Positions 30,097-54,398 of a DNA stretch of 64,000 nucleotides are shown here, piece after piece. The position numbers and the translations under genes are program-made. Source of the DNA: Candidatus Bathyarchaeota archaeon (lineage in GTDB: Archaea > Thermoproteota > Bathyarchaeia > Bathyarchaeales > Bathycorpusculaceae); NCBI GenBank assembly GCA_963717465.1, contig OY970340.1:2144001-2208000 (forward strand), in the 5' to 3' direction. Below the pieces are notes generated by a model. The model had not been told where the DNA came from, made no database searches, and was given only the letters and a program-made list of their open reading frames with translations. Each line of letters starts with the position of its first letter. Position 1 is the stretch's first letter.

Positions 30097-30145
30097 ATTC
30101 TTAAACTTTAAGAGACTGTCACATTTACATTACAGGTGACGATGG

Positions 30146-30598: not shown

Positions 30599-30859
30599 AT
30601 TCCTTGAAGAGTCTAAATTTAAAACTCGAAATAAACTCCAATTTTCTGGCTCTCCTTTTTTGTGTTTTAGAAAATTCTTGTTGTGTTGATACGTTGACTG
30701 TATCTTTGCTTCGATATTGCATGTCAAAACAAGTACCTATCTGCCTACATATCGTCAATACCTTTATCTCAATCTTTCGATTGCTTAAACTTTACGCAAA
30801 ATTTTTATAAGGGACGCTAACATACCTGACGAACAGCGAATCTAAAATGGTGAAAATTT

Positions 30860-31495
30860 ATGGTCGAAATTGAAGATCTTAGAAAAGTGACAGCAGACGT
30901 AAAAATGGAAGAAATGGAAAAAATGACAAATGAACTCATTGCCAAAGGCGTTGACCCAGTTAAAATCCTTAACGACGGCATTGTAAGAGGTCTCTATGAT
31001 TTAGGCGATAAATTTGAAAAGAGAAAGGCCTTCATCCCAGATCTAGTAAGAGGTGAAAAAGCAGCCAGAAAATGCATCGAAATATTAACAAAACTCCTCC
31101 CAGCACAATCAAGTAAAATTTCCAAGAAAATAGTTATTGGAACCATGCTCAGCCAGCATAACATTGGCAAAAACCTTGTGAGCACCTTCCTATCAATCAA
31201 CGGATTCGACGTGATTGACATCGGCGAGAAAAAGGAGCCGTGGGATTTCTATGAAAAAGCCGAGCAAGTTCACGCAGACATGATTGCGGTCTCATGCATC
31301 TTTTTGCCATCCCTGACTAAGTTCCCAGAGTTGATTGACGTGTTAAAGCAAATGAAAGTACGCGACAAATACAAGGTCATTGTAGGCGGGACTTTAACCT
31401 CAAAGAAATGGGCTGAAGAGAACGGTGCTGACGGCTGGGGCTTTGACGCAAACGAAGGTGTACAAGTAGCAAAGAAATTACTCGGCGTGGCCTAA
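30860..31495 (+). CDS. Methyltransferase cognate corrinoid protein
   Basis: Cap domain (GDKFE...FIPDL), HNIGKNLV, NGFDVIDIG, KVIVGG, GADG. Confidence 0.9.
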   Translation: MVEIEDLRKVTADVKMEEMEKMTNELIAKGVDPVKILNDGIVRGLYDLGDKFEKRKAFIPDLVRGEKAARKCIEILTKLLPAQSSKISKKIVIGTMLSQHNIGKNLVSTFLSINGFDVIDIGEKKEPWDFYEKAEQVHADMIAVSCIFLPSLTKFPELIDVLKQMKVRDKYKVIVGGTLTSKKWAEENGADGWGFDANEGVQVAKKLLGVA

Positions 31496-31548
31496 AAAAC
31501 CAAGCGCTGACGAAAACTGTTCATTACTGCTTGAGAAGTGAATTACTG

Positions 31549-32469
31549 ATGGTTCTTAGGTTTAAACGAGAACAGCTAACTTATGATATTTCAGGCACTA
31601 AAATCGGTGGACAACCTGGCGAGTATCCGACTGCTCTGGTTGGAAGCATATTCTATTCTGGTGGCAAAATGGTAAAAGACCCACAAAAAGGAATTTTTGA
31701 CCACGACAAAGCTAGAGCCACAATTGCCAAGCAAGATGAAATGTCACAGAAAACAGGAATTCCCGCCATAGTAGATGTTGTCGCCTCGACAGGGGAAGCA
31801 ATGGCAAATTACATCGAATTCGTCGCTGACGTTACAAAGGCACCAATGTTCATTGACTCTCCACAACCTGATGTTCGTCTTCATGCTTGCAAACATGCTG
31901 TCCAAGTTGGTCTGCGTAGTCGCATTGTATACAGTTCCATTACTCCTGCGTTCAAGATAAAGAGCTTGAAGCAATAAAGGAGTTAGGTCTTGAATCATGT
32001 GTTATATTGGCGTTCCATGGAGATGAGTTTCTGCCAGAGCAAAAACTTGAACTCTTGCAGGGAACTGATAAACAAGAAGGCTTAATTTCTAAAGTGAAGA
32101 GAGCAGGAATCAAAAACATCTTAATCGACAACGCAGTTTTAGACGTGCCAAGCGTCGCTTACGTCGTCGCTTCCATTAACGCGGTTAAGGAAACATTAGG
32201 AATGCCGTGTGGCTGTGCACCAGCAAACGTCTTTGATACTTGGCCCAGAATTAAAGAGCTTGGAGAAAGTGCTTCAGACGTATGTTACGCTTCATTGCCA
32301 GTATTCATTCAAATTCACGGTGCAGACTGGCTTCTATACGGCCCAATGAAGAATGCAGACATCGTGTTTCCAGCTGTTGCCATGTCAAACTGCGATAATA
32401 ACTTATAGCGGCGTAATAAACGGCTTCGAAGCTAAAACCGAGAAAACCCCACTATACACGGTATTTTAA
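31549..32469 (+). CDS. MtrH-like methylcorrinoid:pterin methyltransferase (indels near 31960 and 32390)
   Basis: GGQPGEYPTALVGSIFY, IDS, GCAPAN, GADWLLYGP, ends PLYTVF*. Confidence 0.85.
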
Positions 32470-38006: not shown

Positions 38007-38070
38007 TTAGATTCAGCCTAAGGTTTGTCGGAGAACTTGGAAAGACGGCAAACCTTAGGTGTGAGTCTGG
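38007..38070 (+). ncRNA. Long hairpin, candidate structured RNA
   Basis: About 24-bp stem (cctaaggtttg/caaaccttagg core) whose non-Watson-Crick pairs are G-U on the + strand. Confidence 0.4.
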
Positions 38071-38086
38071 TTGGATTATCCAACCA
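38068..38086. promoter_or_regulatory. Palindromic operator-like site, copy 1
   Basis: tggttggattatccaacca. Confidence 0.6.
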
Positions 38087-38188
38087 TTATTTGATAATTA
38101 ATCCATATAAACTTTACTAGGCAATAAAAATTAGTGACTTTCGCCTGCTGAAAAGCAAACGAGCAGTAAAATAAAAAAAAATCAAGTG

Positions 38189-38782
38189 TTAACTTTGGTT
38201 TCTTCTATTCCTGCTTAGCCATTCTTTAAAACTGCCTGTATACATTCCCCAAGCTTTGAGTTTTGGTGAGATAGCTCTAATCAAAGCTGGAGAGATTATG
38301 CATACTATTGGCAAGTTGATTAGAAATGTGCTTATGAAAGCTAATTCAGCCCATTCTGAAGTTGGAAATAATACTGGCAAAATTGTATATTGCCAAACGA
38401 TATAGGCTAATCCAACAAAGAGCGTCAAAGCATATACGCCTGCGAGGTAAGCGAGATTTCGTTTTTTTCCTTTCTCACCTGCATTTCGTGGCATGAGAAC
38501 CCAATTCATCATGTAGATTAGAAAAGCTACGACTGCTTCAAAGATGCCGAGTGGACCTAGACCTTCCGCGAAGGCTCCGCCTATAAACGCTCCAATCATG
38601 CTGCCTATTAGCCCGTTCCACCCGAACCATAGAGGGAAAACTCCTAGTAGAACTATTGGGAGATAGAGCAATGCGAATTTAGAAATATTAATTGCTGATG
38701 ACACAAAAAACAAGGCAGCGTAGATTGCTGCAGACATTGCCATTATGGACACTGATTTAGCTGAAATTGTTTTTCTATTCAT
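38189..38782 (-). CDS. QueT/ECF S-component-like membrane protein
   Basis: MAMSAAIYAAL, PLWFG; about 5-6 TM helices; downstream of cobT. Confidence 0.6.
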   Translation of the reverse strand: MNRKTISAKSVSIMAMSAAIYAALFFVSSAINISKFALLYLPIVLLGVFPLWFGWNGLIGSMIGAFIGGAFAEGLGPLGIFEAVVAFLIYMMNWVLMPRNAGEKGKKRNLAYLAGVYALTLFVGLAYIVWQYTILPVLFPTSEWAELAFISTFLINLPIVCIISPALIRAISPKLKAWGMYTGSFKEWLSRNRRNQS

Positions 38783-38798
38783 TTTCCCTTTCCTCCAT

Positions 38799-39899
38799 TC
38801 AATTTTGCTGTTTTGAATTTACTAGGTGAGCGTAATTTGTTTCAATCTCCGACAGCAACATGTCTGATGTAATTTTGCCTTTTGACTTTGCCATAGCAGC
38901 TATGCTTGTCCCTCCAACGCCAACTCCTTCTTTTACAACGCCAGCTTCGTACGCTTGTAAACCCTTGAATTTTGATTTACTAAAATTCAAGTTTGCTACG
39001 AGAATTGGGGCGTCAGCGATTTGAGTAACTATTCCTTTAAGATCAGATGACTTGTCTTCAATAATCCATCTTGTAGTTCCAATTGCTACGTTCTTCAAAA
39101 CCTCATTGTCTAAAGCTTTGATAATGGATAAAACTGCAGCCATTTGGGTTCCTCCAGCCATTAAAACAGGAACATTCTCTGCCGCACCTAAAACCAACCC
39201 TGCGAATGCGGGCATCATTGGGTCGCCTAAACACGAAACTGCCTTAAGAGGTTCCTTTTTAAAAGCGCCTGGTCCGATGTTAAGTGTTTTGAGGCCTTGT
39301 TCAACTGCTTTGGTTTTGAGGTCATGAGGGTTCCCAGGCATGCTGCTGCTGACTTTTCCTTTTGCGTCTATGCCCATTGCAAGCAGAACGCCGAGTGCAG
39401 TTGTGGTTCCTCCGGGAATGCTTTCTCCTATGACGAGGTAATCTGCGGTTTGTGATAGCATTTTTCCAGCGAGTTGAGCTCTTTGCAGGACTTTTTCTGC
39501 GTTTTCTACGGCTTTTCCAGTTCGTATGTCTCCACCGTGTTTTCCGCCTAAATCAACGAATGGAACTTGAGGCAACACACGTAACCCTGCATTAACTGGC
39601 AATGCTGGTATGTCTGCCAGCTTCAGCGCTGACATGGTAACTAATGCGGGAGTAGGAATGCCGTCAGGTGTAACAGGTACGCCGTTGATGCATTTGCATC
39701 GACCAAGAAGTAATAGTTCTACATCTGCAGGTGGCGTATAATCGGTTATTTCCGGGCATGCTCCTGCGGCTGATATGCCAGGGATTTTAGCTGTCTCCGT
39801 TGTACCAATCGTGCATAAAAAAAGCGGTTTTTTTCCAGTTATTTTTTTAAGGAAACTTTTGCTTTTAACTTCGTTGTTAACTATAGTTATATCTTGCAT
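38799..39899 (-). CDS. cobT: Archaeal NaMN:base phosphoribosyltransferase CobT
   Basis: GISAAG, PTPA, GESIPGGTTTA, GDPM, AGGTQM, KEGVG. Confidence 0.9.
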   Translation of the reverse strand: MQDITIVNNEVKSKSFLKKITGKKPLFLCTIGTTETAKIPGISAAGACPEITDYTPPADVELLLLGRCKCINGVPVTPDGIPTPALVTMSALKLADIPALPVNAGLRVLPQVPFVDLGGKHGGDIRTGKAVENAEKVLQRAQLAGKMLSQTADYLVIGESIPGGTTTALGVLLAMGIDAKGKVSSSMPGNPHDLKTKAVEQGLKTLNIGPGAFKKEPLKAVSCLGDPMMPAFAGLVLGAAENVPVLMAGGTQMAAVLSIIKALDNEVLKNVAIGTTRWIIEDKSSDLKGIVTQIADAPILVANLNFSKSKFKGLQAYEAGVVKEGVGVGGTSIAAMAKSKGKITSDMLLSEIETNYAHLVNSKQQN

Positions 39900-39990
39900 T
39901 TTCTCAATCTCGGAGACTTTTTGCTTTCAAAGCAAGAATGGTAAATAATATAAGCCTTTTCTGCCGCATTACAAATGTAGTGTGTAAACT

Positions 39991-40920
39991 TTGAAGGTCA
40001 CTAATATCAGATTTTCCGAAAAGTTGCTATCCGACGCTGACAAATTGGCGAAAAAGCATGGGCTCAACCGCTCTGAAATCATACGCCAAGCGCTAACTGT
40101 CTACTTGCACCTAGTCGAAAACATGGGAACAATGCTTAGACCCGTGGCCTTTCAAGTTAAGCCTTCACAGATTAATTATATGCGCAAAGGAGACGTCTCA
40201 ATTTTAAGAATTCCCACGGGGCACGCAATCGTCGTTGGGTCAACTTCTTCCGGAGCTGTAGGGCCCAAATCAATGGATAAGATAAAAGTTGACGGAAGAG
40301 TACTTGGTAAGTTTCTCGCCAGGGTTGGCTTAATGGACGTCGCTGCAACGGGTGCCTTTCCAATTATGCTTTCTGCGACCTTAGGTGTAGAGAAAGAGCC
40401 TACTGGACGCGAAATTCTGGAGGGCATGCGACGTGAGGCTGCTGTACTTGGGCTTGAACCAAACCAAGTCTTAATGGAAAACACTGAGGAGAATTTTGAA
40501 ACAGTGCAAACAGGAGTTGGCTTAACCGTGGTTGGCTTTGCAAATGAAGAAGAGCTTCGAGTGGGGAAAAGTATGCCTGGAGACTTATTGGTTGCTATTG
40601 GCAAGCCTAAGGTGGGCAACGAAGTCATTTCTTCTGAAGCTAAAGGTGAAATAGCTGACTTAAAAAGCGTAATTTGGCTTAGCCAAAAAAAATATATTCA
40701 TGACATTGTGTCTGTTGGCGCTTTTGGAATCGCTTATGAAGCTAGAATGATGGCTCAAGCAGTTGGACGACAGTTGAAACTATCGGAGAACATGGTGGTG
40801 GATATAGAGAAATCCGCTGGACCTGCAACAGTGGTTCTCGTCACCGTAAACTCGGAAAAGTTTGAGGAGTTAGCTTCAGTTATCAAAAAACCTGTGGCTA
40901 TAATTGGAGAAATATTATAA
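39991..40920 (+). CDS. RHH-fused alpha-ribazole kinase-like (CblS, PurM-like) protein
   Basis: N-terminal RHH (TNIRF...NRSEIIRQAL); GAVGPK..D, TEENF.T.QTG.G, G.PKVG.EV, KSAGPAT. Confidence 0.75.
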   Translation: MKVTNIRFSEKLLSDADKLAKKHGLNRSEIIRQALTVYLHLVENMGTMLRPVAFQVKPSQINYMRKGDVSILRIPTGHAIVVGSTSSGAVGPKSMDKIKVDGRVLGKFLARVGLMDVAATGAFPIMLSATLGVEKEPTGREILEGMRREAAVLGLEPNQVLMENTEENFETVQTGVGLTVVGFANEEELRVGKSMPGDLLVAIGKPKVGNEVISSEAKGEIADLKSVIWLSQKKYIHDIVSVGAFGIAYEARMMAQAVGRQLKLSENMVVDIEKSAGPATVVLVTVNSEKFEELASVIKKPVAIIGEIL

Positions 40921-40944
40921 TTAAAAGTGCATATCTCAGAGAAA

Positions 40945-41907
40945 TTAAACGATCAGTGCTATAAGAGCTAAAATTGAAAAAACTACAATCACGCCAAACA
41001 AGATTGCAGTTACACACATTATCCTCCATGCCCTAGTAATGTCCCCGGTTGAAATCTTCGTTCCATCTCCAAGGGCATAATTGTTTTCCTTTTCAAGTTG
41101 AGTATTTAACGCTCCCGCCATAGCTGAAATTGTCCATCCAGCATTCGGGCTTGCAGTTTTGTTTTTATCTCTTTTTAGAATTCGCCAAGAATTCCGCCAA
41201 TTCGCACGCAGCAATCCAGCTGAAGCAACCATTAAAACCGCAGTAATCCTTGTTGGGACATAATTGGTTATTGTGTCCATTTTTGCGCTGAACCATCCGA
41301 TATTCACGTTTACTTGGTCTTTGTATCCTACCATTGAATCTAAAGTGCTGATGGCTCTAAAAGCGAAAGCGCCTGGAACTCCAAATAAAGCAAAGAAGAA
41401 AAACGGTGAGGTTACTCCATCTGTTGTGCTTTCTGCTATGGACTCAACTGCCGCGGAAATAATGTGCCGTTCATCTAACTCGTTTGGGTTGCGGCGTACA
41501 ATGAAAGGCAGCCACTCTCTAGCCCTGTTTAGATCTTTTTCCTTCAGAGCTTTTTCAATCGGATAAGTGTAATGACGCATGCCTTTGAGTGAAAATGTAG
41601 CTTTAAACATCAAGGCACCTAAAATTATGTATATCAGCGTGCCCCAAACAGGAATTTGCAGAACTGCCCACAAAATGACTCCTGCTGGAACTGCGAAAAG
41701 TACAATCAGCCCAACGCATAAAAAAACACCATTAATTTTTTCAACCTGTGGATTTGAGTTTTTGATTTTTGGCTTAAAAAAAGATATAACTTTTCCCATC
41801 CAAACCGTAGGATGTACGCGATCGGGAATCTCGCCGAAAATCAAATCAATCAAGAGCGCTAAAACAAAAATTAACAATGAATCCAAAAAAAATGCAGTAT
41901 CAAACAT
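40945..41907 (-). CDS. cbiB: Adenosylcobinamide-phosphate synthase
   Basis: D...GE...HPTVWMG, ESIAES..DG, TLDSMVGY, SPNAG. Confidence 0.9.
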   Translation of the reverse strand: MFDTAFFLDSLLIFVLALLIDLIFGEIPDRVHPTVWMGKVISFFKPKIKNSNPQVEKINGVFLCVGLIVLFAVPAGVILWAVLQIPVWGTLIYIILGALMFKATFSLKGMRHYTYPIEKALKEKDLNRAREWLPFIVRRNPNELDERHIISAAVESIAESTTDGVTSPFFFFALFGVPGAFAFRAISTLDSMVGYKDQVNVNIGWFSAKMDTITNYVPTRITAVLMVASAGLLRANWRNSWRILKRDKNKTASPNAGWTISAMAGALNTQLEKENNYALGDGTKISTGDITRAWRIMCVTAILFGVIVVFSILALIALIV

Positions 41908-41926
41908 ATTTCGGCTTCAAACCTGT

Positions 41927-43052
41927 CTATCCATAGACTTCCTTTAGTGTCTCAAGCAGTTTTTTATTTTCGTCTCTTGTTTTAATTGCAATCCTGACAA
42001 AGTATTCATCTAAACCTGTAAAAGAGTTGCAGTCTCGAATTAGAACTCCCTGCTTAAGCATTTTTTCCTTAAGCTGCGCAGCTGTCCAACCTGATTTTCT
42101 GATATCGATAAATAGGAAGTTTGCGTCAGGCGGATAAATCTTGAAAGCCTTAAATTGTTTAAGCTCTGCTAGGAGAAATTTTTTTTCTTCTTTTATTAGT
42201 TTCAAAGTTTTCGTTAGGTGTTCTTCGTCTTTGAGAGCTGTAATTGCTGCTGATTGAGCTAAACAGTTAGCGTTCCAAGGAATCTTATTGCTTAACATAT
42301 AGCTGACAAGCTCTTCACAAGCAATTCCGTAGCCGACTCTCAAGCCAGTTAAACCATAGATTTTCGTGAAGGACTTTAAGATGAAAAGGTTAGGGTATTC
42401 TTCTATTTTATTTATGAACGTCAGCTTTTCTTGGTTTTCGACAAATTCTAAGAAATCTTCATCAAGAAAAACTAATGTACTATTTTCCAGTGCAGTTTGA
42501 ATAATAAACTCTAAGTCTTTTGTTGAAGTTAAATTTCCTGTTGGGTTGTTCGGGTTGCATAAAAAGAAGATTTTGGCTCCAGCAATATCTTTGGTGAAAG
42601 TTGCTTGTTCAACTTGAAAATTTTTATTTAACAGTAAGAATTTTACTTGCTCTCCCGTTCTTCTTATTGCGCCTTCGTACTCGCTAAAGCTGGGTGCTGG
42701 AATAACCGCGAAATCGTCTTTTTTCATGAAAATGTCCGCAAATAGGTAAATTAGCTCAGTTGAGCCGTTTCCAATTACGATGTTTTCCTTGCTAAGTGAA
42801 TAGTGATTTGCGATTGCTTCCCTGAGCTGGTTTGAGTTAGAATCTGGATATTTTGGGATCTGCCAAAAATTATCTAGTTATTGCTTCAAGAGCTTTGGGT
42901 GAGGGACCGATGGGATTTACGCTTGAACTAAAGTCTAAAATGTCAACAGGCTTTAAACCAGTCTGTTTGGCTGCAGCCAAGATCTGACCGCCATGAACGC
43001 ACGGCTTAAAATTCCTCAAATTGTCTTTAACTAAGCTTTCGATTGGCTTCAT
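41927..43052 (-). CDS. cobD: Threonine-phosphate decarboxylase (frameshift near 42872)
   Basis: HGG, DFSSSVNP.GP, CNPNNPTG, KSFTKIYGLTGLRVGY, IRDC..F.GL. Confidence 0.85.
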
Positions 43053-43074
43053 TATTTTTCCTCGTGATATTAAA

Positions 43075-44288
43075 TCAAATTAAGTTTAAGAGTATCGGCA
43101 TGACGTTTTTGCCTTGAATTCGTTTTAAGCCGCCCTTATACATTGCTTTTTCATTAAACTCAACGACTTCGTCTCTTACTATCTCATTGCTTGCTATTGA
43201 GATAGGCACTGGGTCGCCTGTGTGTTTTCTGGTTTTGCAGGATGTAACATGATCAGGCATTAAGGCTATAGCGACTTCTTCAAGGTTCACGTTATCCAGT
43301 ATTGTTCCCACCATTGTGTCAATTTTTTTGATTATACCTATTTTTCCTTGAATATCTCCGTTGTGGCTGGCTTCGTCAGGTGCTTCAACATGTACAAAAA
43401 CAAAATCATCCGTTCGAAGCGCGGCTAATGCTGCTTTAGCCTTTGCATTAGTGTCTGTATCAAGCTCGCCTGTGGCTCCAGGAACATCTACAACAGACAT
43501 GCCTGTTAATTTGCCGATGCCCTTAATGACGCTAACTGCAGCGACACATGATGCCTTCAACTTGTATTTTTCATAGAATGATTGAAGGACTGGCGTTTTG
43601 CTTCCACTCCAAGGAATCACAACGTTAGCAGGAAGTTTTCCTTTTGCCTTGCGCTGTAAGGTTAACAGGATTATTTTCAAGCAACGTATTAGAGGTTTTC
43701 ACAAACTCATTTAGCACTTCAGCGGTTTTTTTCGCTTCACTCGAATCGTCTAAAGGTTTGATCAACCCAATTGTACTGCCCACTTTAGGCAGTGTAACCG
43801 CAGACACATTGGCTGAGAGTTTTTCACCCCTAAGTACTAAAGCGCCTTTAAACCCCAATGTCTGCTTGAAAATAACTTCAACATCCGAATTTTTCTTTAA
43901 TTTTATATTCGCAACCTCTCGCTCTAAGTGCTTTAGCTTCCTCTCGAATGCGTCCTGCCCTTTCATCAACTAACATCAATTCTTTATTTACTGTTGCAAA
44001 GTTGCATCTGAACGCTGTGTCTCCGGTTTCAAGCTTTATTCCTGCTCCTGTAGCCTCAAAAGGTCCTCTTCCAGTGCAATTTTGTCCCTCGTAACCCAGA
44101 ATAGATAAGTTTGCAGCGTCGCTTCCAGGAGCAACTCCTAATGCTACTGAGTCAAGTAAACCGGAAATACCGTTGGCCGCTAACCTATTCATATTTCTTG
44201 GTTTGGCTGCTTGAAGCGGTGTTTTGTAATCCAGTTCCTTTAACGGTCGATCTGCCATTCCATCGCCGACTATGACGATTAGGCGCAT
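43075..44288 (-). CDS. ApgM-like alkaline-phosphatase-superfamily phosphomutase (two indels)
   Basis: [44 protein letters not shown]. Confidence 0.85.
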
Positions 44289-44372
44289 ATTTTTTTCTCC
44301 TGGCTGCTTTGCTTTGCCGTAAGTCTATTATTTAGGTGTTGTTAGTGGGGTTTGCAAATCATATAAACATTT

Positions 44373-44389
44373 GGATGGATAGTCCAACC
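44373..44389. promoter_or_regulatory. Palindromic operator-like site, copy 2 (imperfect)
   Basis: ggatggatagtccaacc between the divergent apgM-like gene and cbiZ, next to catataaac. Confidence 0.55.
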
Positions 44390-44441
44390 GGAAATATTAT
44401 TATAGAACCAACTAATAAAACAGCGCAAAGGTGTAGTCATC

Positions 44442-45452
44442 ATGAAGCAAGTTGATTTGTTAGGCGTTAAAGGCAAAATCGTAATCAAAAATAACGTGCT
44501 ATTGATAACCAGTCAAACAGACATGACAACTGTTAGCTCCGCATTCTACAATGGTGGTTTAACAAAAACTAGAAACATCCTCAATATTCAAGTGTCCGGA
44601 TACAACCAAATAGAACTTCACAACGACCCGTTCATACCGATAAAACATGCCCAAAAAAAACTACAGCTAAACGATGATTTTGTCGCAATGCTCACTATTG
44701 TAGATATTAACAAGATGGCGTTTGTTTCTGCTAAAGCAGGCGAAATATCTATAAACGTGATTGCAACAGGAGGCTGCACTCACCCTGAATCCGCAGGAGA
44801 AAAAATTGATTCAACAGTAACCGCAGGAACAATAAACACTTTCGTCTTAGTGGATGGCAACCCTTCAGGCGGCGCTTTGATGAACTTATACTTAACAGCA
44901 ACTGAAGCCAAGGTTGCCGCTGTGCAAGATTTGGATGTTCGAAGCCGATACACCGGCGTCGCAGCCACAGGAACAGTAACAGACAGTTTGCTTGTGGCGG
45001 CTTCTGGTAAAGGTGAACGTTTCGATTTTGGCAGTCCCGCCTCGCCAGTAGGTCAAATAGTCGCACAGTGCGCCCGCAAAGCCGTTCGGCAAGCAATCCT
45101 AAACTACGAGTCTGAAAAATACGGCGGCTCCATCGCGACTCGATTAAAGGATAGGCAGTTGACAGTGGAACGGTTAGCTGGCGAGATTTCAAAAATTGAA
45201 GGCTTTCACAAAAACAAAAAGGCACTTGCTGCTGAAATTGAGAAAATATTGCAGGACGAATCATTAGCCATTTACTTGCTTGCAGCAGCAAAACTAGATG
45301 AAGACTGCGAAAAACAACTTATTAAATCCCAACTTTCCACTGCTTTTGGAAGTTTTTCACCAGCGAATCCAGTAAGCTTTAATAGCGATTCAGCAAATCT
45401 GCCGCAATTCACTAAACACGCCCTACTGAACTTACTTTTAAACAGAAAATAA
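44442..45452 (+). CDS. cbiZ: Adenosylcobinamide amidohydrolase
   Basis: SSAFYNGG, GTINT, TEAK, ATGTVTD. Confidence 0.85.
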   Translation: MKQVDLLGVKGKIVIKNNVLLITSQTDMTTVSSAFYNGGLTKTRNILNIQVSGYNQIELHNDPFIPIKHAQKKLQLNDDFVAMLTIVDINKMAFVSAKAGEISINVIATGGCTHPESAGEKIDSTVTAGTINTFVLVDGNPSGGALMNLYLTATEAKVAAVQDLDVRSRYTGVAATGTVTDSLLVAASGKGERFDFGSPASPVGQIVAQCARKAVRQAILNYESEKYGGSIATRLKDRQLTVERLAGEISKIEGFHKNKKALAAEIEKILQDESLAIYLLAAAKLDEDCEKQLIKSQLSTAFGSFSPANPVSFNSDSANLPQFTKHALLNLLLNRK

Positions 45453-45566
45453 AGGCAATTTCTATTTTTGTTTAGCGCGATTTATTGTGTCAAAGTTTAG
45501 TTGAAGGTATCGCCGCTTAAATAGCATCATCGGTTAATTTTGAATAAAAGTTGTGCAGCAATTTTC

Positions 45567-46316
45567 TTATACACTGCCCTTTTTCAGAGTTACAATTGAT
45601 GCTGAGAAGAAAAAAATTCCGTAGCCTATGAGCACTAAGAAGGACAACCATGGGAAAGACTGGTTCAACGCCGCCGCTCGCAAACACAGACTTGAATGTG
45701 TAAGCGGCAATAGATAAAGTGCAATCTTTAAGGCTTCAGGCACTTGATTCAAAGAGAAAAAAGTGCCACATAGAAAAGTCATGGGTAAAATAACTAAGTT
45801 GCTGAAATTCCATATTTTCTCATGCTCATTGAAGACTAAAGCGATAAGCACTCCAAATAACGCAAAGACAAAACAAGAGATAAGCAGTGTTAATATGAAA
45901 ATTGGGCTAACAGTTAGCGTCGGCAAAAGGACAAGCCCCACAAGCAGTATAGCAACCGAGCTGATTAAGCCACGAACCACGCCTATTAACGCCTTGCCCC
46001 AGACAATCGAATAAAAACTAACTGGAGACATTAAGAAATTGTCGAAGCTCTTGTAAAATAGTTTATCCATCTGAAGCTTTGATGAAGAACCGTTGTAGCT
46101 GGATGAAAATGCTGTCAAGGCAACAATCCCTGGAATGACAAACGCCAGGTAGCTTTCGCCTTCAATGTTGACGGCGTTTCCTAAGCCATAACCGAAAGCT
46201 ATTATGTATAAAAGAGGCTGCACAAGGCTAATGAGTACCGTTGAACGCCAATGATGACGCAAGTTCTGCAAATCTACCCAAAAAATGGAATAAGTGTCTT
46301 TTAGTGAGTCAAGCAT
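45567..46316 (-). CDS. ABC-2 type permease
   Basis: Y.AFVIPG, GKAL, PM.FL.GTFF, LPLTH. Confidence 0.85.
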   Translation of the reverse strand: MLDSLKDTYSIFWVDLQNLRHHWRSTVLISLVQPLLYIIAFGYGLGNAVNIEGESYLAFVIPGIVALTAFSSSYNGSSSKLQMDKLFYKSFDNFLMSPVSFYSIVWGKALIGVVRGLISSVAILLVGLVLLPTLTVSPIFILTLLISCFVFALFGVLIALVFNEHEKIWNFSNLVILPMTFLCGTFFSLNQVPEALKIALYLLPLTHSSLCLRAAALNQSFPWLSFLVLIGYGIFFFSASIVTLKKGSV

Positions 46317-47182
46317 TATGCGTCACTGACCTTCTGCCCTGTGCTTTCTACAAAAACATCTTCTAGGTTAGTATCGCGGATAGTAATTGTCTTAATGTTT
46401 GGCGATAAATTTTGAACAAACGTGCTAGCTGCTGCTCGATCAGCAAAGAATTGGTAGTGAGTCTCTTTGTTATCTACTAGTGTCTCAACAGCGATTGGTC
46501 CCAAGTTCTTACGCAATTCCATAGGTGTGTCAACAGCGATCAAGCTACCCTTATGCATAATGCCGACACGTTTGCAGAGTGCCTCGGCCTCCTCAATATA
46601 GTGAGTAGTGAGAAAAATTGTTGTCCCATCCGAGTTTAATCGACGAACTAAATCCCAGAGGCGACGTCGCGCTTGAGCATCCAGACCTACTGTTGGCTCA
46701 TCCAGAAACAATAGTTTTGGTTTATGCAAAAGGCTGCAGACTATTGCGGCCCTCTTCTTCATTCCGCCCGAAAGAGTGTCTACCATTTTATCAGCACACT
46801 CTCCGAGCTCGACATAATCTATCAACTCGGCTATGCGTGCCTTGCGTTCTGATGAGCTCAGACGATGGAGTCTAGCGTTAAACTCCAAGTTTTCTCTAAC
46901 TGTCAAATCCCAATCTAAAGTAAGATGCTGTTGCACTACACCGATAATCCGCTTAACTTTATCTGGCTCTCTTGTTACGTCAAAACCTCCCACAGATGCA
47001 TAACCCGAAGTCGCGTGAGTTAAAGTAGTTAAGACACGGATGGTTGTGGTTTTTCCTGCTCCATTAGGTCCTAAAAAACCAAAAATTTCTCCACTTTGAA
47101 CTTTCAAATCGAGGTCGCGGATAGCTTTAGTGTTTCCGTAAGTCTTATTCAGTTTTTCAGTTACGATAGTTCCTTCAATCAA
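46316..47182 (-). CDS. ABC ATPase (DrrA-like)
   Basis: GPNGAGKTT, LSGGM, LDEPT.GLD. Confidence 0.9.
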   Translation of the reverse strand: MIEGTIVTEKLNKTYGNTKAIRDLDLKVQSGEIFGFLGPNGAGKTTTIRVLTTLTHATSGYASVGGFDVTREPDKVKRIIGVVQQHLTLDWDLTVRENLEFNARLHRLSSSERKARIAELIDYVELGECADKMVDTLSGGMKKRAAIVCSLLHKPKLLFLDEPTVGLDAQARRRLWDLVRRLNSDGTTIFLTTHYIEEAEALCKRVGIMHKGSLIAVDTPMELRKNLGPIAVETLVDNKETHYQFFADRAAASTFVQNLSPNIKTITIRDTNLEDVFVESTGQKVSDA

Positions 47183-47204
47183 CGAAATCCGCCTTTAGTT
47201 TTTG

Positions 47205-48525
47205 CTAAGCAGTTTTCTTAGATTTTAAGTGATCGACGACGCTTTGAGGGACCTCTCCGGACAGTTTGGACGTTTGAACGTGGATATCAAGCTTGGATAA
47301 AAGTTCATTTTGAGTTTTTACGAAGATTGCTCCCATTTTTTTTAGTTCGTCTAAGCATGCTTTTGCTTGTCCTTTAGTGAAGTCTCGGCTTTCTATGGGC
47401 ACTTGGTCTAATACTATTACATTAACTCCTTTTTGGAGAGCTTCTTTGGCTGCTTGCAAGTTCTCCAAGTTGCCATAGCCGAATGGAACAGAGGAAATGA
47501 CTGTAAAGTTAGCTTTTTTAATCATTTCCAAATTTATTTTCATTGATTTGTCGGTTATGGGTGAAAATGGGGCTTCACTAGCTACGGGTATATTGAGATA
47601 TTGTGCTGTTTCATAGTCAGTGTCTAAGACGTTAAGAACTCCAGCAGTAACCAAGTAGCCTTCGTTTTGAAAGATTTTCATGAGTTCAGCTCCCGTTCCT
47701 GCGCCACAAATCAAGTGAATGGAGCAGTTTTTGGGTGCAGGAGGCTTGGTGACTGACATGAGGTTAACGTATAATGAGCCTGTAACCGAGTTTTTCTTAA
47801 CTATGGCCTCGACATTGAACACGTTTTTTATGTTCTCGTTGGTTATAACTTGCTCTATAGTTCCTGCAGCATACACCTTGCCGCTTTTAAGAAGCAAAGC
47901 GTAGTTGCAGTAGCGCGCAGCCATATTCAGGTCATGGATAACTGCCAGTACCATAAGTTCCTCTTTTACGCAAAGGCTTTTCATCAAATCCATAATCTCA
48001 AGTTGATTAACTATGTCTAAATGTGTCAATGGTTCATCAAGGAGCATAATTCTTGGCTCCTGCGCTAGCGCCTGTAGCGATAACAACTCGCTGCTTTTCA
48101 CCGCCGCTTAACTCGTTTATGGGTCTTTGAGATAGATGCCATGTATTTGTGAGGTTCATGGCTTTTTTGGCAATTTCGAAATCTTTAGCGCTTTCCATCT
48201 CAAACCTGTTTAAGTGGGGGTTTCGACCCATTAGAACAATATCGAGCGCGCTAAAGCTGAATCCTATGCTGCTTTCTTGGGGAACAACCGCAACGTGTTT
48301 GGCGACATCGATACTTTTCATTAGGTAAACGTCATTGTTGTCGAGCGTTATAGCGCCCTTGTGCGGTTTGAGAGTTCTGCTGATGCTCTTAAATAAAGTG
48401 CTTTTACCAGAACCATTTGGTCCGAGGATTCCGATGAAATCTCCTTTTTTTACGGTTAGGGTGACGCCTTCCAAAACCTTAGTGGAGCCGTAATGGCATT
48501 CGACGCCTTCAACATTCAGCAGCAA
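47205..48525 (-). CDS. btuD: Corrinoid ABC importer ATPase with C-terminal extension (frameshift near 48068)
   Basis: GPNGSGKS, LSGGEKQRV, LLDEP..HLD, HDLN.A. Confidence 0.8.
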
Positions 48526-48538
48526 AGTTTTAGCCTTC

Positions 48539-49618
48539 CTAAAGTGAGTAAGTGGTTTTCTTCCTTCTAAGCAGGTAGATGAAGAAAGGCGTTCCCAGCA
48601 AGGCAGTTATTACTCCAACTGGCAATTCTGCAGCACCCGTAGCTACCCGAGCAATAGCGTCACAGCATATCAAAAAGATTGCGCCTACAATTGTTGAGGC
48701 TGGAAGTAGGATGCGGTGATCTGGCCCGATTATGAGTCGGGTCATATGAGGAACTATTAAGCCTACAAAACCGATGATTCCGCTGATCGATACCGCTGCT
48801 GCAGTCATCAGAGATCCTAAAATTAGTAAAATTTGTCGCACTCTTTCCGTGTTAACGCCTAATTGTTGAGCCGTATCATCGCCTAACGCAAGCAAGTTGA
48901 GGTCGCGAGCAAAAAAATACGATATTGAAATACCTATTACAAGGAATGGCAAAACTTCCCAAACATTTAACCAACTCATGGCGCTAAAACCACCTGCAAG
49001 CCAAGCAACTATTCCAGTAAGAGCTTGCCCTGACCGCAACTCCATGAGTGTTTCAATTGCTAACAAGAAAATGTTGACTACGATCCCTGAAAGCAATAGA
49101 GTTGTTACTGGAACCCTGGAGCCAACTCTTGAAATGGAGTAGACCACCAAAATCGTAGCCATCGACACAACGAAAGCAAAGATTTGGTAAATGCTGGGAC
49201 CAAACAATGAAACAAGAGAACTGAAATACAGGACGGCAGCGATAAAGCCTACTGAAGCGCCTGCTGAAGCGCCGAGCAAATATGAGTCAGCCATTGGATT
49301 CTTGAAGACACCTTGATATAATACTCCTGCAGCAGCTAACGCTGCACCAACCAGTGCAGCTGCCATGATGCGTGGAAAGCGAATCAGCATAATTATTGCT
49401 GCATCGCTTGGCGATATTATTGTTGATGCAAGAGTTTTGCTTAAAAAAGGAATGTTTTTTCCGATTATGATCATAATTTCGGAAAATGAAATTGGCGCAT
49501 AACCAACGTTAAGGCAGATAACTATAGCTGCGATTAACGTAAGAATTAGAAATACGATTATTAATTTCCAGTGCGAAGAACGCTTATTGTATGACCCTTC
49601 GAGTTTATCTGCGCTCAT
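48539..49618 (-). CDS. btuC: Corrinoid ABC importer permease (FecCD family)
   Basis: RFPRI, NPMAD.YLLG, GIIGFVGLIVPH, ELPVG. Confidence 0.85.
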   Translation of the reverse strand: MSADKLEGSYNKRSSHWKLIIVFLILTLIAAIVICLNVGYAPISFSEIMIIIGKNIPFLSKTLASTIISPSDAAIIMLIRFPRIMAAALVGAALAAAGVLYQGVFKNPMADSYLLGASAGASVGFIAAVLYFSSLVSLFGPSIYQIFAFVVSMATILVVYSISRVGSRVPVTTLLLSGIVVNIFLLAIETLMELRSGQALTGIVAWLAGGFSAMSWLNVWEVLPFLVIGISISYFFARDLNLLALGDDTAQQLGVNTERVRQILLILGSLMTAAAVSISGIIGFVGLIVPHMTRLIIGPDHRILLPASTIVGAIFLICCDAIARVATGAAELPVGVITALLGTPFFIYLLRRKKTTYSL

Positions 49619-49705
49619 TCTTTAGCTCCAGTCATGTAGACGGGAAGCTTTCTTTGAGACATTACAATTCTTCCTAAAATAGCCTCTGACTAGAAATAAA
49701 AATAT

Positions 49706-50701
49706 TTAGGATGTTGAATTGAAAAGCTGCGGATACAAGCAAGCTGCGAGATCTTGAATTAATATGCCGATTCTTGGTCCTGGTTCACTGAAAAGGTCTT
49801 CATTAACAACGTATATTTGATTATTTTGCAAGGCACTTATTGTATTCCACCCTGTCCTTGCTTGAACATCAGCTGTCGTTACACCTAAATCATCTAGTAT
49901 GATGACATTGGGATTAAGCGTAATTATAGACTCCTGATCTACGGTAGGCCATGGGTCTGTGACATTAGCGAAAATATTAGTTCCTCCCGCCTGATGGATT
50001 GCATCGCTTATCCAAGTGGTTCCACCTACGCTTATGTAGCCTGTTGTGCTGCTCCAGACTTCAAAGTAAACGTTAACTGGTGTTGTAATATTTGCGTCGG
50101 CAATTTTTGTTGATATATTTGTTATTGTGCTGCTTATGTTGGTATCAAGTGATGCTGCTTGCGCCTGAGCTCCTGTTGCTCTGCCTACCAGGTCTATGTC
50201 TTGTTCTATGCCAGTCACTATGGTTGGGTTGAGTACTATTACTTTGTACCCGTCATCTCTTAGTGTTGCAATGCTTTGAGCGTCACATTGACTATCCGCT
50301 ATGATTAAGTCGGGAAGAGCAGAAGCAACGGCTTCCAAATTGGGTGTCCCATAGGCCCCATCAAACGTCATGTTGCCAGCTACAACCCAAGCGGTGAAAT
50401 TGTAGGGGTAATCTTCGCTTACGACATCAGGAGAATTTAACGCGCCTGTCACGGCTACTACCTTGTCGCCTACGCCTATAGCAAAACATATTTGTGTGGC
50501 ACTTGGCGCTAAGGAGACAATTCTTTGAGGTGTCGAAGTTAGGTTGGTTACGTATCCGTAGTCGTCTACTACTGAGATTTGAGCATTCTGCGATTGAAGG
50601 TTGTTGATTTGTGAAGAAAAACTGAGGTATATGAACAGTGAAGAAACGATGGCTATTATAGTTATAATTGCGGCTATGTAAGTTCCTGTTTTGTTACTCA
50701 T
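49706..50701 (-). CDS. btuF: Corrinoid ABC substrate-binding protein
   Basis: N-terminal TM anchor, PQRIVSLAPS, PNLEAV, EPGPR. Confidence 0.85.
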   Translation of the reverse strand: MSNKTGTYIAAIITIIAIVSSLFIYLSFSSQINNLQSQNAQISVVDDYGYVTNLTSTPQRIVSLAPSATQICFAIGVGDKVVAVTGALNSPDVVSEDYPYNFTAWVVAGNMTFDGAYGTPNLEAVASALPDLIIADSQCDAQSIATLRDDGYKVIVLNPTIVTGIEQDIDLVGRATGAQAQAASLDTNISSTITNISTKIADANITTPVNVYFEVWSSTTGYISVGGTTWISDAIHQAGGTNIFANVTDPWPTVDQESIITLNPNVIILDDLGVTTADVQARTGWNTISALQNNQIYVVNEDLFSEPGPRIGILIQDLAACLYPQLFNSTS

Positions 50702-50717
50702 TTTTTGATCATCCTGC

Positions 50718-50738
50718 TTGGTTGGATAATCCAACCAA
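50718..50738. promoter_or_regulatory. Palindromic operator-like site, copy 3
   Basis: ttggttggataatccaaccaa between a TATA-like box and the btuF start. Confidence 0.7.
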
Positions 50739-50824
50739 ATATTTAAAACTTACGACACGATTAAACTAAAAATAAAAAAGACGAGTGAAAAAGAATAAGC
50801 TGAATAAGTACAGGTGAAACGTGT

Positions 50825-51551
50825 ATGGATATAGAAAAAGTTGCAGTTTCATGGAGTGGCGGCAAAGACGGTTGTTTTGCTTGCTACAAAGCCATGAAGG
50901 AAGGCTTCCAAGTTTGTAACTTGTTAACTATGATGAAAGATGAATTTACGTCAAGTTTCCATTTAATTCGCTCTGACCTGCTTAGATGCCCAGGCAGCAG
51001 CTTTCGGAATTCCCATAATTAAAAAGAAGACTACGCTTGAAGGGTACGATGAAGATTTTAAAGCCGCTCTAAAACAATTAAAAGAGTTGGAGTAGAAGCC
51101 TTGGTTACTGGAGACATATATGAAGTAAGCGGACACGAGACAGGCTGGTTGGAACGAATCTGCAGCGAAGTTGGTTTGAAAACTTGGAAGCCGCTATGGA
51201 TGGGTGACACAAAAAAAATTTTCTGAGGATTATTTGAAGGCTGGCTTTAAAGCGATTGTAGTTAGAACAAAATTGGATGTGCTTAGAGCCAGTTGGCTGG
51301 GCAGGCAATTGAATGAAGAATTTCTCAAAGATATAATTGAGCTTGGAAATGTGGATCCGTGCGGAGAAAACGGTGAATACCATACGCTTGTTATCGACGG
51401 GCCAATATTCAATAGAAGCATTGAAATTGTTGAAACTAAGAAGCATAAGCTAGAAAGCGGTTATGGATTCCTGGAGATAAAACAGTTCAAAGTAACCCAA
51501 AAGCATGAGAGCCAAAAACGTCTAAAATCAGAAAATTCATTTGCTCATTAA
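50825..51551 (+). CDS. Dph6/MJ0570-like PP-loop ATP pyrophosphatase (about 3 indels)
   Basis: SWSGGKDG, VTGDI, PLW, DPCGENGEYHT.V.DGP.F. Confidence 0.8.
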
Positions 51552-51585
51552 AACCACGAACTAATGTAAAATAAGTGAGATTGTC

Positions 51586-52342
51586 TTGGTAGTTAAGCAA
51601 TTAAAAAACCTTCTATCTTTTCTTAACCGTCTTTCCAGTATCAATGGATAATAACTTTCTGACAGACTGCGCCAACTACATGTTCGCTTTTCCGTTAGTC
51701 GGCGCATTAATCGGTTTATTGGCTGGAGTATTCGGTTGGGCGCTAAGCTTCTTTCTTCCAACCTTAGTAGTTGGAACATTAATTCTAGCGTTAATACTGT
51801 TAATTACGGGGGTTCACCATACAGATGGCTTATTAGATTTTGGTGATGGCCTTATGGCTCATGGTTCTCCTGAGCATAAACTTGAGGTTATGCATGATCG
51901 TTTTACAGGCGCAGGAGGCATAGCCTTAGGCGTTATGACTCTTCTGATTACTGCCGTCGCCTTTGGGCAATTAAAAAGTGACATAATCATTCAAGCTATA
52001 ATCGTTGCAGAGGTTTCAGCAAAGCTTTCGATGGTTGTCACGACTTGGGCTGGCAAACCCGTGCGTCAAGGGATGAACTCACCCTTCATGCAAGCAATGC
52101 ATGGAGGCAAGGGCAATTTGCGCTTGATTATCGCTTTAATAATTTCACTTGTATTCGCGTTTCTGCTACTTCATGCGGCTGGTTTATTCATCGTACTTGC
52201 TGCAATAATAACTAGTTTAGTTATGGTCGCAATAGCGCATAAGAATTTTAATGGGGTAACGGGTGATGTTTTAGGTGCTACTAACGATCTTTCAAGAATG
52301 GTTGCAATCGTTGTTTTATTGGCGGTGATTAGTTGGGCGTGA
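51586..52342 (+). CDS. cobS: Cobalamin synthase (frameshift near 51625)
   Basis: FPLVG, H.DGL.DF.D, MHD...GA.G, GVTGDVLGA. Confidence 0.9.
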
Positions 52343-52950
52343 CAGCGCTTGTTATGGCTGGAGGCAAGGGCTCACGTTTAAAAATTGCTCAGGAAAAACC
52401 GTTGATAAAAGTATGCGGTAAACCAGTTATCGATTATGTCCTCATGGCTTTGCTGAGCGCAAAGAAAGTTGATTCGATTATTGTGGCAGTTAGCAATAAT
52501 ACGCCCAAAACTGGGGAATTAATGGCTAATTTCCCCGTTAAAGTTATCCAAACACCCGGAAAAAATACTGTTTTTGATATGGGATACGCCGTCGAGCAGC
52601 TTAAGCTTGGAGTCGTCTTGGTCATTGCTGCTGACCTTCCACTGATAACTGGAAAAACCTTGGATGGCATAATTGATTATTATGAGCATTGCGGTAAACC
52701 TGCCTTGAGTGTTATCGTCTCAGCAGAAACTAAAGAACGGTTGGGAATGAGTATAGAACATGCATACAAAATAGGAGATAGACAGGTTGTCCCCGCCGGG
52801 ATTAATATCATTAATGGGCATAAAAGAATTGGCGATGAGTGGCTTGAACAAGAAGATTATCTGTTAGATATAGAACAAGTTGCCGTCAATATTAACACTC
52901 TCGAAGAATTAAGAGCTGCCAAACGCCTAATGGAGAGCGCAATTACTTGA
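52333..52950 (+). CDS. cobY: Adenosylcobinamide-phosphate guanylyltransferase
   Basis: MAGGKGSRL...EKPL, ADLP, PAGIN, NINT. Confidence 0.85.
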   Translation: MGVTALVMAGGKGSRLKIAQEKPLIKVCGKPVIDYVLMALLSAKKVDSIIVAVSNNTPKTGELMANFPVKVIQTPGKNTVFDMGYAVEQLKLGVVLVIAADLPLITGKTLDGIIDYYEHCGKPALSVIVSAETKERLGMSIEHAYKIGDRQVVPAGINIINGHKRIGDEWLEQEDYLLDIEQVAVNINTLEELRAAKRLMESAIT

Positions 52951-53000
52951 CATTTTGTTGTGACATTTTGGTGTTAATGGGTATATGGTAAGCTGATACC

Positions 53001-54398
53001 ATGAACACTCCAAGGATATTAATCGCAGGCATGCATAGCGGTGTTGGAAAAACCACGGTTTCGTTAGGTTTAATGGGAGCTGTCAAAGAATTGGGGTTTA
53101 GGGTCCAAGGCTTCAAAGTCGGCCCAGACTATATTGACCCGAGTTATCACAATGTAGTTACTGGCGGAGCCTCGGAAAACCTGGATTCCTGGATGATACC
53201 GCACGACCAGATCATTGAATTATTCAATCGGGCAGCTTCCCACGCAGACATAGCGGTAATTGAAGGGGTTATGGGTCTATACGACGGCGTAAACGGTCTA
53301 GATGAATCAGGAAGCACAGCTGAAATCGCTAAAATATTAAAATGCCCAGTGATTTTGGTTATTGACTCACATGCATTGGCTCGAACCGCTGGAGCACTGG
53401 TTTTAGGCTTCAAAAATTTTGATAAAAAAGTAAATTTTGCCGGCGTTATCGTTAATAGAGTCGCAAGCCAAACCCATGCATTATGGTGCAAGCAAGCCAT
53501 CGAATCATCTACAGGGATAAAAGTTATTGGCTCATTGCCAGTTAATTCCGAATTGAAACTTCAGGAAAGACATTTAGGATTGATTCCCACTGTAGAAACC
53601 AAAACATTCAATCCAATATTAGCAAAGATCATGCGATTCGTGAAAAATAACATAAATATTGATGCAGTTATAGAAATTGCAAGATCCGCTAAACACCAGC
53701 CAAAAACCGCAAACCCAGTTTATCCGAAATTAAACATGCCTAAGAGAGTCGCTATAGGCGTAGCTTTCGACGAAGCCTTCAATTTTTATTATCCAAGCAA
53801 CCTGTCGCTTCTTGAAGTATATGGAGCGGAAATTAAGCATTTTAGCCCTATTCACGACCCAGAGTTACCAAACCACGTGAACGGATTGTACATTGGCGGT
53901 GGCTTTCCAGAGATGCTTCCAAAACAGTTAGAAGATAACCAAAAAATGCAAAATGCAATTAGAAAAGCCGCAGACATTGGAATGCCAATTTATGCTGAAT
54001 GCGGTGGTTTAATGTACCTAACAGACTCAATAGCCGATTTTGAAGGAAACACATTTCCTATGGTTGGCATATTGCATGGCAAAACTCTGATGACAAGCAA
54101 GACATTGCTTAACTATACTATTTCAAAGACATTCAAAGATAACATTTTAACCGCTGAAGGCTGCCTTTTAAGAGGTCATGAATTTCACTGCTCCAAAATT
54201 ATTGATATTTCAAGTGATGCACAATTTGCTTATCGCATGCAACAGGGTGAAGGTATAGTCAGAAAACAGGATGGCTGGATTAAAAACAATATTTTAGCCT
54301 CCTACATGCATATTCCTTTCATACAGTGTAGACAATTAGCATTTAATTTTGTAAATGCTTGCGAGAAACATAAAGATGAAAAGGCTTCAGCGACGTAA
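53001..54398 (+). CDS. cbiA: Cobyrinate a,c-diamide synthase
   Basis: SGVGKTT, GPDYIDP, EGVMGLYDG, ERHLGL, AECGG, GHEFH. Confidence 0.92.
   Translation: MNTPRILIAGMHSGVGKTTVSLGLMGAVKELGFRVQGFKVGPDYIDPSYHNVVTGGASENLDSWMIPHDQIIELFNRAASHADIAVIEGVMGLYDGVNGLDESGSTAEIAKILKCPVILVIDSHALARTAGALVLGFKNFDKKVNFAGVIVNRVASQTHALWCKQAIESSTGIKVIGSLPVNSELKLQERHLGLIPTVETKTFNPILAKIMRFVKNNINIDAVIEIARSAKHQPKTANPVYPKLNMPKRVAIGVAFDEAFNFYYPSNLSLLEVYGAEIKHFSPIHDPELPNHVNGLYIGGGFPEMLPKQLEDNQKMQNAIRKAADIGMPIYAECGGLMYLTDSIADFEGNTFPMVGILHGKTLMTSKTLLNYTISKTFKDNILTAEGCLLRGHEFHCSKIIDISSDAQFAYRMQQGEGIVRKQDGWIKNNILASYMHIPFIQCRQLAFNFVNACEKHKDEKASAT

Follow-up and report, generated by a model that had tools for sequence, protein, structure and literature searches.

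A 64,000-nucleotide stretch of the genome of a Candidatus Bathyarchaeota archaeon (contig OY970340.1, positions 2,144,001 to 2,208,000; called the window here) carries a cluster of cobamide (B12) genes and, in its intergenic regions, three copies of one palindrome. The genes, named by their Pfam and NCBIfam matches, are listed with the other features in Table 1. A sequence-only reading of this DNA had taken the palindrome for the mark of a probable protein-controlled cobamide regulon, with perfect copies at 38068-38086 and 50718-50738 and a two-mismatch copy at 44373-44389. Those positions proved exact: a search with the pattern GGTTGGATWATCCAACC at up to three mismatches gave three matches in the window and no others, at 38069 (no mismatch), 44373 (two mismatches) and 50720 (no mismatch), and the symmetry extends to a perfect 19 bp around the first and a perfect 21 bp around the last. 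The chance mean for this pattern in the window is 0.15, and three or more matches occurred in none of 100 shuffles. The consensus is a palindrome of 17 bases, GG(T/A)TGGAT-W-ATCCA(A/T)CC. As that reading also held, all three copies are intergenic and near TATA-like boxes, and two occupy divergent promoters, the copy at 44373 between apgM-cobD-cbiB and cbiZ and the copy at 50720 between btuF-btuC-btuD and dph6-like-cobS-cobY-cbiA. Its implication for the copy at 38069 fails, however: no protein gene follows, and the site lies between two converging 3' ends, those of a Methyltransf_24 gene and of a membrane open reading frame (ORF) of 197 aa.

Table 1. Features at and around the palindrome copies (window positions unless prefixed C1; BRE, transcription factor B recognition element)
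Feature	Position	Strand	Remarks
Unit A hairpin	38017..38059	-	loop of 15 nt, pyrimidine-rich, on a ~13-bp stem; core of a small RNA predicted to start near 38082
Operator 1, GGTTGGATTATCCAACC	38069..38085	.	30.4 bits; lies over the transcription start predicted for ORF-less unit A
Unit A BRE-like purine run and TATA, TTTATATG	38104..38118	-	19 nt upstream of operator 1
cobT (TIGR00303, 38799-39899) and 197-aa membrane ORF	38189..39899	-	ORF without Pfam or NCBIfam match; no upstream operator here
RHH_1 + AIRS-domain protein	39991..40920	+	Pfam/NCBIfam; disfavoured as reader
apgM-like (split frame), cobD-type aminotransferase, cbiB	40945..44288	-	transcribed away from operator 2
Shared two-way TATA box	44360..44368	.	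4-5 nt from operator 2
Operator 2, GGATGGATAGTCCAACC	44373..44389	.	21.5 bits; TATA-downstream for cbiZ, BRE side for apgM-cobD-cbiB
cbiZ, adenosylcobinamide amidohydrolase (cobinamide salvage)	44442..45452	+	PF01955
btuF (49706-50701), btuC (FecCD), btuD (split frame), ABC-2 ATPase/permease pair	45567..50701	-	
Operator 3, GGTTGGATAATCCAACC	50720..50736	.	30.4 bits; between TATA and start of btuF, BRE side for dph6-like-cobS
Shared two-way TATA box	50742..50749	.	4-5 nt from operator 3
dph6-like ATP pyrophosphatase (split frame), cobS, cobY, cbiA/cobB	50825..54398	+	
Unit B hairpin	C1:2867215-2867248		paralog of unit A

A weight matrix was built from 59 hand-picked intergenic sites of related genomes (25 bits; lowest training score 20.4), with a few two-mismatch coding matches excluded; a first, degenerate pattern was dropped since its control was nearly as frequent. 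The genome-wide scan that the sequence-only reading had proposed gave, over 3.05 Mb, exactly four sites of at least 20 bits, three of them those of the window and the fourth at C1:2867182; three block shuffles had none. Two of the four, operator 1 and C1:2867182, precede a short hairpin and no protein gene. The claim that no copy lies outside the B12 region thus holds within the window; genome-wide it does not, as the fourth site is far from cob genes. A two-mismatch match at C1:2437532 and five three-mismatch matches were rejected as noise, scoring at most 15.7 bits.

Comparison of cob and btu promoters across genomes, likewise proposed by that reading, showed that the motif is conserved before B12 genes. 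It was matched at up to two mismatches in 34 of 41 relatives, and GGHTGGATNATCCADCC at up to one mismatch in 175 of 201 genomes of the class Bathyarchaeia, against 14 of 201 for the reversed control. At the level of the phylum, 66 of 151 genomes matched, and families outside the class did so in, for example, 13/14, 8/8, 3/3, 4/4 and 5/10 genomes. (Below, G numbers denote relatives' genomes, L numbers fetched loci and f numbers families of the phylum.) In the fetched flanks the site stands directly before btuF, FecCD, genes for an energy-coupling factor (ECF) S component with DUF4430, dph6-like-cobT, cobZ, cobD, hemA/cbiP, chlI, cobN and cbiM, and also before PQQ-propeller and cohesin surface-protein genes. 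An exact, motif-only scan of GTDB species genomes gave at least 121 loci, 80 of them with DNA (55 archaeal, 24 bacterial and one unlabelled by its record title); what follows on these loci holds among the matches listed. Starts of genes from a reference set of 37 proteins, made up of B12 genes and regulator candidates, lay nearby in 39 of the 55 archaeal compared with 2 of the 24 bacterial loci, both of the latter being aminotransferases, and six further archaeal loci and the unlabelled one precede mcrB. No Thermococcales record was among the 80. Collectively, these data show that the palindrome is a conserved DNA site on B12 uptake and salvage promoters in Bathyarchaeia and several other archaeal groups, and the comparison leaves little doubt that it would serve as the protein operator of a B12 regulon.

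Promoter geometry and the distribution of base changes bear on the nature of the element. A TATA-like word lies within 10 nt of 35 of the 59 sites, compared with 7 of 351 shifted control positions, and cbiZ and cobT are also among the genes behind such TATA-adjacent sites. All 15 selected btuF sites lie 2-8 nt downstream of the TATA box; among ten ECF sites, five lie 2-4 nt and three 20-24 nt downstream, and two have no called TATA box. Archaeal TATA boxes are placed at -26/27 in PMC4158304, so that most sites, falling 2-8 nt after the TATA box and before the expected start, would be untranscribed. Across the 59 sites 394 pair positions carry the consensus, and of 78 deviations 64 break pairing, 10 are of the wobble type and 4 compensate. 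No Rfam family was matched at the gathering score in the window, in keeping with the absence of a cobalamin riboswitch from the sequence-only reading, and none at E<=1 in six site loci. A perfect copy of the palindrome does fold into a 7-bp stem and would be partly transcribed in unit A, the ORF-less unit behind operator 1, but against the changes in pairing, the position and the Rfam result it is hardly credible that the palindrome acts as an RNA hairpin or riboswitch-like leader. Taken together, the pairing-breaking deviations and the untranscribed, TATA-adjacent position show that the element is a DNA operator and not an RNA.

The protein that best fits this operator is of the winged helix-turn-helix (wHTH) type with a DUF4443 domain and is encoded in this genome by a single-copy gene outside the window (C1:941540-942178). 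It has an N-terminal wHTH (PF22167, PF21715) followed by DUF4443 and matches 2p8t with an E value of 2e-12; the latter is PH0730, the DUF4443 prototype, encoded by Pyrococcus horikoshii. In a structure model (predicted local distance difference test score, pLDDT, 90) the predicted fold resembled PH0730 (Z 20.2, root-mean-square deviation 2.4, 176 aligned), the modelled wHTH matched the DNA-binding domains of CggR and MarR, and the C-terminal domain, modelled and searched as part of the whole protein, matched 2p8t and the GAD region of aspartyl-tRNA synthetase (Z 10.6, root-mean-square deviation 2.9, 112 aligned). Seven of the 55 archaeal GTDB loci have the site no more than ~80 nt from where a DUF4443 gene begins, in most cases opposite an ECF-S gene; COG1497 or RHH-AIRS starts, those of two rival candidates, were found at none of the 55, and a scan of 15 further neighbours gave no other regulator domain. 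At six loci of family f33, a variant site separates the DUF4443 gene from a cbtA-like operon that it faces. In four of four Methanomassiliicoccales genomes a wHTH-DUF4443-DUF2111 fusion carries the site at its own start, divergent from component A2 of methyl-coenzyme M reductase (MCR). The recognition-helix region is alike among these DUF4443 proteins.

DUF4443 was found in 36 of the 41 relatives and in 181 of the 201 class genomes; it was not found in G006, G018 and G024. Among the controls, Sulfolobus acidocaldarius also gave a match. Among the 201, both DUF4443 and motif occur in 165, DUF4443 only in 16, the motif only in 10 and neither in 10 (odds ratio 10.3, Fisher p 2e-5). The table is weak, as nearly every class genome has DUF4443, related genomes do not count as independent, and double absences are inflated by gaps in the assemblies. 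In the ten genomes with the motif and no DUF4443, the domain was not recovered by an alignment search, three weak matches covering the wHTH only; five of the ten have coding or promoter-less matches, two have real sites in fragmented assemblies, and G277, G292 and G228 were left out. Motif matches in the DUF4443-negative lineages f34, f20 and f25 are likewise coding or promoter-less. The physical link of sites to DUF4443 genes is stronger evidence than this co-occurrence. From these comparisons the DUF4443 protein is likely to be the reader of the operator.

We propose that the DUF4443 protein would bind its operator when cobamide is plentiful. Bound between the TATA box and the start, as at btuF, cbiZ and unit A, it would block initiation; where the same two-way TATA box has the protein on its BRE side, this may block initiation of dph6-like-cobS-cobY-cbiA and apgM-cobD-cbiB as well, so that by a shared two-way TATA box one site would shut both divergent operons. 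The repressor position between TATA box and start is known for TrmBL1/Tgr, MDR1 and Phr, as PMC4158304 describes. The opposite geometry, overlooked by the sequence-only reading, occurs before B12-using genes of other lineages: in Methanomassiliicoccales all seven mcrB sites end 9 nt upstream of the TATA box, and two of four corrinoid-protein sites and the single mtaA site lie 8-10 nt upstream. (The mcrB and fusion loci are L311, L321, L326, L329, L338, L342 and L358, with the site at 1201, and L407-L410.) An operator bound 9 nt upstream of the TATA box of mcrB and some corrinoid genes in other lineages would activate, and binding at cobamide plenty would thereby shut supply and open consumption, which could account for both geometries. 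That the GAD-like C-terminal domain senses cobamide, and that the two ORF-less units are small RNAs made at B12 shortage, are presumed and are the weakest steps. Overall, the best explanation is likely to be an operator of a PH0730-like wHTH-DUF4443 protein that, with cobamide bound, would repress or activate by position. The idea of a repressor responding to B12 or cobalt, put forward by the sequence-only reading, thus stands as regards a protein operator of a B12 regulon with a repressor position at btuF and cbiZ, and needs amending for the activator position seen in other lineages.

Several observations weigh against this model. Sixteen class genomes have DUF4443 and no motif, and in G172, G175 and G010 no DUF4443 was found despite real sites. 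In this genome 1.24 Mb separate the DUF4443 gene, which adjoins a GTPase gene and has no site of its own, from the cob cluster; only one of 30 DUF4443 loci of relatives has a site within ~1.5 kb, most Bathyarchaeia copies adjoining a GTPase gene, and the DUF4443-bearing families f36 (0/7), f40 (0/13) and f45 (0/7) have no pattern match. With the TATA pattern used, the activator position was found at only two of four corrinoid-protein sites and at none of two mtaB and four component-A2 sites. There is a second, short DUF4443 paralog in Methanomassiliicoccales with no site nearby, and given two paralogs mcrB may answer to another signal. Lastly, an RbkR site ~5 nt upstream of the TATA box is read as activation in PMC5397151, and by this precedent the sign at dph6-like-cobS and apgM-cobD could be activation.

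Other readers and another signal have to be weighed against the DUF4443 model. The sequence-only reading had named the RHH-AIRS fusion of the window, under the name RHH-CblS (a label that none of the searches supplied), and this protein could be a trigger enzyme in the manner of RbkR. It lies inside the cob cluster, joins RHH_1 to an enzyme domain and occurs in most genus members, yet only 22 of 41 relatives match; outside the genus the fusion was found in one of 16 genomes of the same order, with no match in 14 of 16. Real sites occur in five genomes without the fusion (G025, G029, G030, G032 and G034), G024 has the fusion and no site, and among the matches listed none of the 80 GTDB loci has the protein next to the motif. 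We rejected it as reader, rare as it is outside the genus and absent where real sites occur, and consider it a very improbable one. A COG1497-type wHTH-DUF7839 protein is equally hard to credit as reader: the site stands right before its gene in six genomes (G040, G005, G055, G056, G058 and G198), but it was not found in this genome (88% complete), occurs in 13 of 41 relatives and, outside the genus, in one of 16 genomes, and is encoded by G006, G018 and G024, all without real sites and without DUF4443. Not found here and present in site-less genomes, it was rejected as well and looks like a member of the regulon rather than its reader. COG1497-type genes with an operator often face cbiM or btuF (six loci), and the protein is possibly a secondary, cobalt-related regulator within the regulon. 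NikR operators are longer and have a wide spacer.

The same operator and DUF4443 protein could instead respond to cobalt, to a precursor or to the methyl-donor state. Sites before cbiM, a cbtA-like gene, cobN and chlI speak for cobalt and count against the cobamide model too, and the mcrB site, without a direct link to B12 binding, also speaks for another signal. Most targets, however, import or salvage finished corrinoids (btuF, ECF-S/DUF4430, cbiZ, cobS, cobY, cobT, cobZ) and would not be made redundant by an excess of cobalt, and the DUF4443 alignment has no invariant or near-invariant His or Cys, its conserved motif being QRD. We therefore regard these other signals as unlikely and cobamide rather than cobalt as the reasonably probable signal.

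The sequence-only reading overlooked the ORF-less hairpin unit behind one of its three sites. This unit A and its twin, unit B, each have their own BRE/TATA promoter, no long ORF and a stable structure (folding z of -3.4 for A and -5.6 for B); the 12-mer AAAGTTTATATG of the unit A TATA box also heads unit B, at C1:2867149. The two align by blastn at 69% over 101 nt, with a column identity of 72%. No homologs of the hairpins were found in 119 genus genomes by pattern or blastn, nor in a metagenome scan, where all eight matches were unrelated coding sequence, and in a scan for loop targets the best duplexes were no stronger than those of six shuffled loops each. Units A and B are candidate B12-repressed small RNAs, and the chances that the ORF-less units are expressed as RNAs stand about even. 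Only slightly below even, we place the alternatives that they are promoter-leader relics of lost B12 genes, terminator-like hairpins or leaders of peptides of 15 and 21 codons. The missing homologs and the shuffled-loop result suit these alternatives, as do the position of both units between converging genes, an aligned ATG after the hairpin and a related kind of RNA without an operator in G040. On the other side, the two copies, whose neighbours are unrelated, have the order TATA-operator-hairpin and both stems in common, the operators of the two units come close to perfect (29-30 bits), the two peptides agree by eye at 3 of 15 residues, and structured RNAs led by an operator, with a second promoter after them, are found again in G055/G058/G132/G133, in G040/G198/G238/G248 and in G271.

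In the first of these groups the RNA stands directly behind an operator in each genome, and three sequences gave double changes at 2 of 38 pairs; run on 120 genomes, a model of the RNA in G055/G058/G133 matched 4, of which one was new and almost the same as G058, and left units A and B unmatched. In the second group purS, with a second TATA-like box, comes after the RNA; a 12-bp stem is kept in four of four, with double changes at 2 of 23 pairs. G271 has another operator-led structured RNA. Behind the RNA, a second promoter and operator are present in G058, G132 and G271, which makes a mere leader unlikely. Among 45 sites in ten further genomes, a single one lacked an ORF in both directions, and about five others showed an extended structured segment ahead of a gene that has a promoter of its own.

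The purS-linked RNA was seen between purM and purS-purL (L002:1518-1640; L182:1435-1559, minus strand; L249:616-740; L252:621-740), and its loop is complementary to a ribosome-binding site and start codon; target searches with it gave nothing above controls. Its operator-less paralog in G040 is at L270:1460-1540. Operator-led structured RNAs of ~130-150 nt were found at L222, L233, L242 and L280 (model R1), at L256:622-770 and at L010:1518-1700; behind some of them come a U-rich tract and then a second promoter with an operator, ahead of chlI or of a gene for a surface protein. Promoter-linked hairpins of a separate family, at C1:1217100-1218030, have a different stem and pyrimidine-rich loops, in an overall design like that of units A and B.

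Around the window sites, the matrix scan found no site in the divergent cobT/RHH-AIRS promoter (39899-39991) and no operator at the methyltransferase, corrinoid-protein and MtrH-like genes beside the cob cluster (28537-32408). A U-tract follows the last stop codon of the unit formed by cobT and the 197-aa ORF, ahead of the unit A promoter. Split frames are numerous at 41927-54398 (apgM-like, cobD, btuD and dph6-like), as elsewhere in the assembly, and are probably due to sequencing indels, likely homopolymer errors. First in the cobD-cbiB operon is the apgM-like gene (43075-44288; a weak match to TIGR02535, a proposed homoserine kinase), which is found next to the operator again at one further locus (L335); its product may supply threonine phosphate. 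A paralog of Dph6, diphthine-ammonia ligase (50825-51551), is a constant member of the regulon, adjoining cobT or cobS at three fetched loci, and possibly carries out an amidation step of cobamide or lower-ligand synthesis. Elsewhere the operator is carried by genes for Asn-synthase-like proteins with a C-terminal DUF7575 (three loci), PQQ-type beta-propeller surface proteins (five loci) and cohesin/prenyltransferase-fold surface proteins (L052), all of them candidates for B12-scavenging functions.

A regulon of this type has a close relative in the literature. A Thermococcales (Pyrococcus) CblR cobalamin regulon has been predicted, its regulator listed as unknown (PMC10746257). CblR is likewise a predicted protein-controlled archaeal cobalamin regulon with no regulator assigned to it (PMC10746257); the present one extends over Bathyarchaeia and other groups, comes with a proposed regulator family and includes ORF-less units. 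The CblR regulon may be the same system. The literature searched, subscription papers not covered, mentions PH0730 itself only in a family list (PMC6316755); it describes neither the motif nor what DUF4443 does, nor any B12-controlled small RNAs in archaea.

ThiR is reportedly an archaeal wHTH regulator of vitamin genes with a palindromic operator. RbkR is another such regulator with such an operator, in place of the bacterial riboswitch (PMC5397151). The sensor domains of both reportedly derive from vitamin enzymes, whereas for the GAD-like domain of DUF4443 no ligand is known. According to the same text RbkR is likely an activator released by FMN (PMC5397151), whereas here the supply genes carry the site in the repressor position. 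In TrmBL1/Tgr, as is proposed here, a site downstream of the BRE/TATA represses and one upstream activates, but the TGM motif, TATCAC-N5-GTGATA, belongs to another protein family and pathway (PMC4158304), and the operator consensus does not match it. By type, the system ranks with RbkR and ThiR; it has a probable DUF4443 reader and a pair of operator-led hairpin units.

In bacteria, cobalamin riboswitch regulons comprise btuFCD, ECF B12 transporters, cob/cbi genes and cobalt transporters. The same gene set is found here, but under control at a DNA site beside the TATA box and with no Rfam match. Sparing small RNAs of the RyhB type sit under a cofactor-sensing repressor; the hairpin units are similar in being short predicted non-coding transcripts under the same operator as uptake genes, although here the RNA families differ by lineage. 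A rather doubtful extension of our model, Fur/RyhB-like in outline, would make DUF4443 a widespread archaeal cobamide sensor that represses uptake and salvage, activates methyltransferase and mcr operons and, in Bathyarchaeia, silences B12-sparing hairpin RNAs.

In archaea, the operator regulon would do the job of the bacterial B12 riboswitch. With a 25-bit motif and a small protein family of solved structure (2p8t), archaeal corrinoid control becomes testable. The motif can also serve as an annotation tool, pointing to likely B12 functions for ECF-S/DUF4430, PQQ-propeller and cohesin surface proteins, the Dph6 paralog and the Asn-synthase-like protein. Expression of the ORF-less units would make them B12-controlled small RNAs, and if the model holds, the mcrB and corrinoid-protein sites of Methanomassiliicoccales would tie methane formation to DUF4443 regulators.

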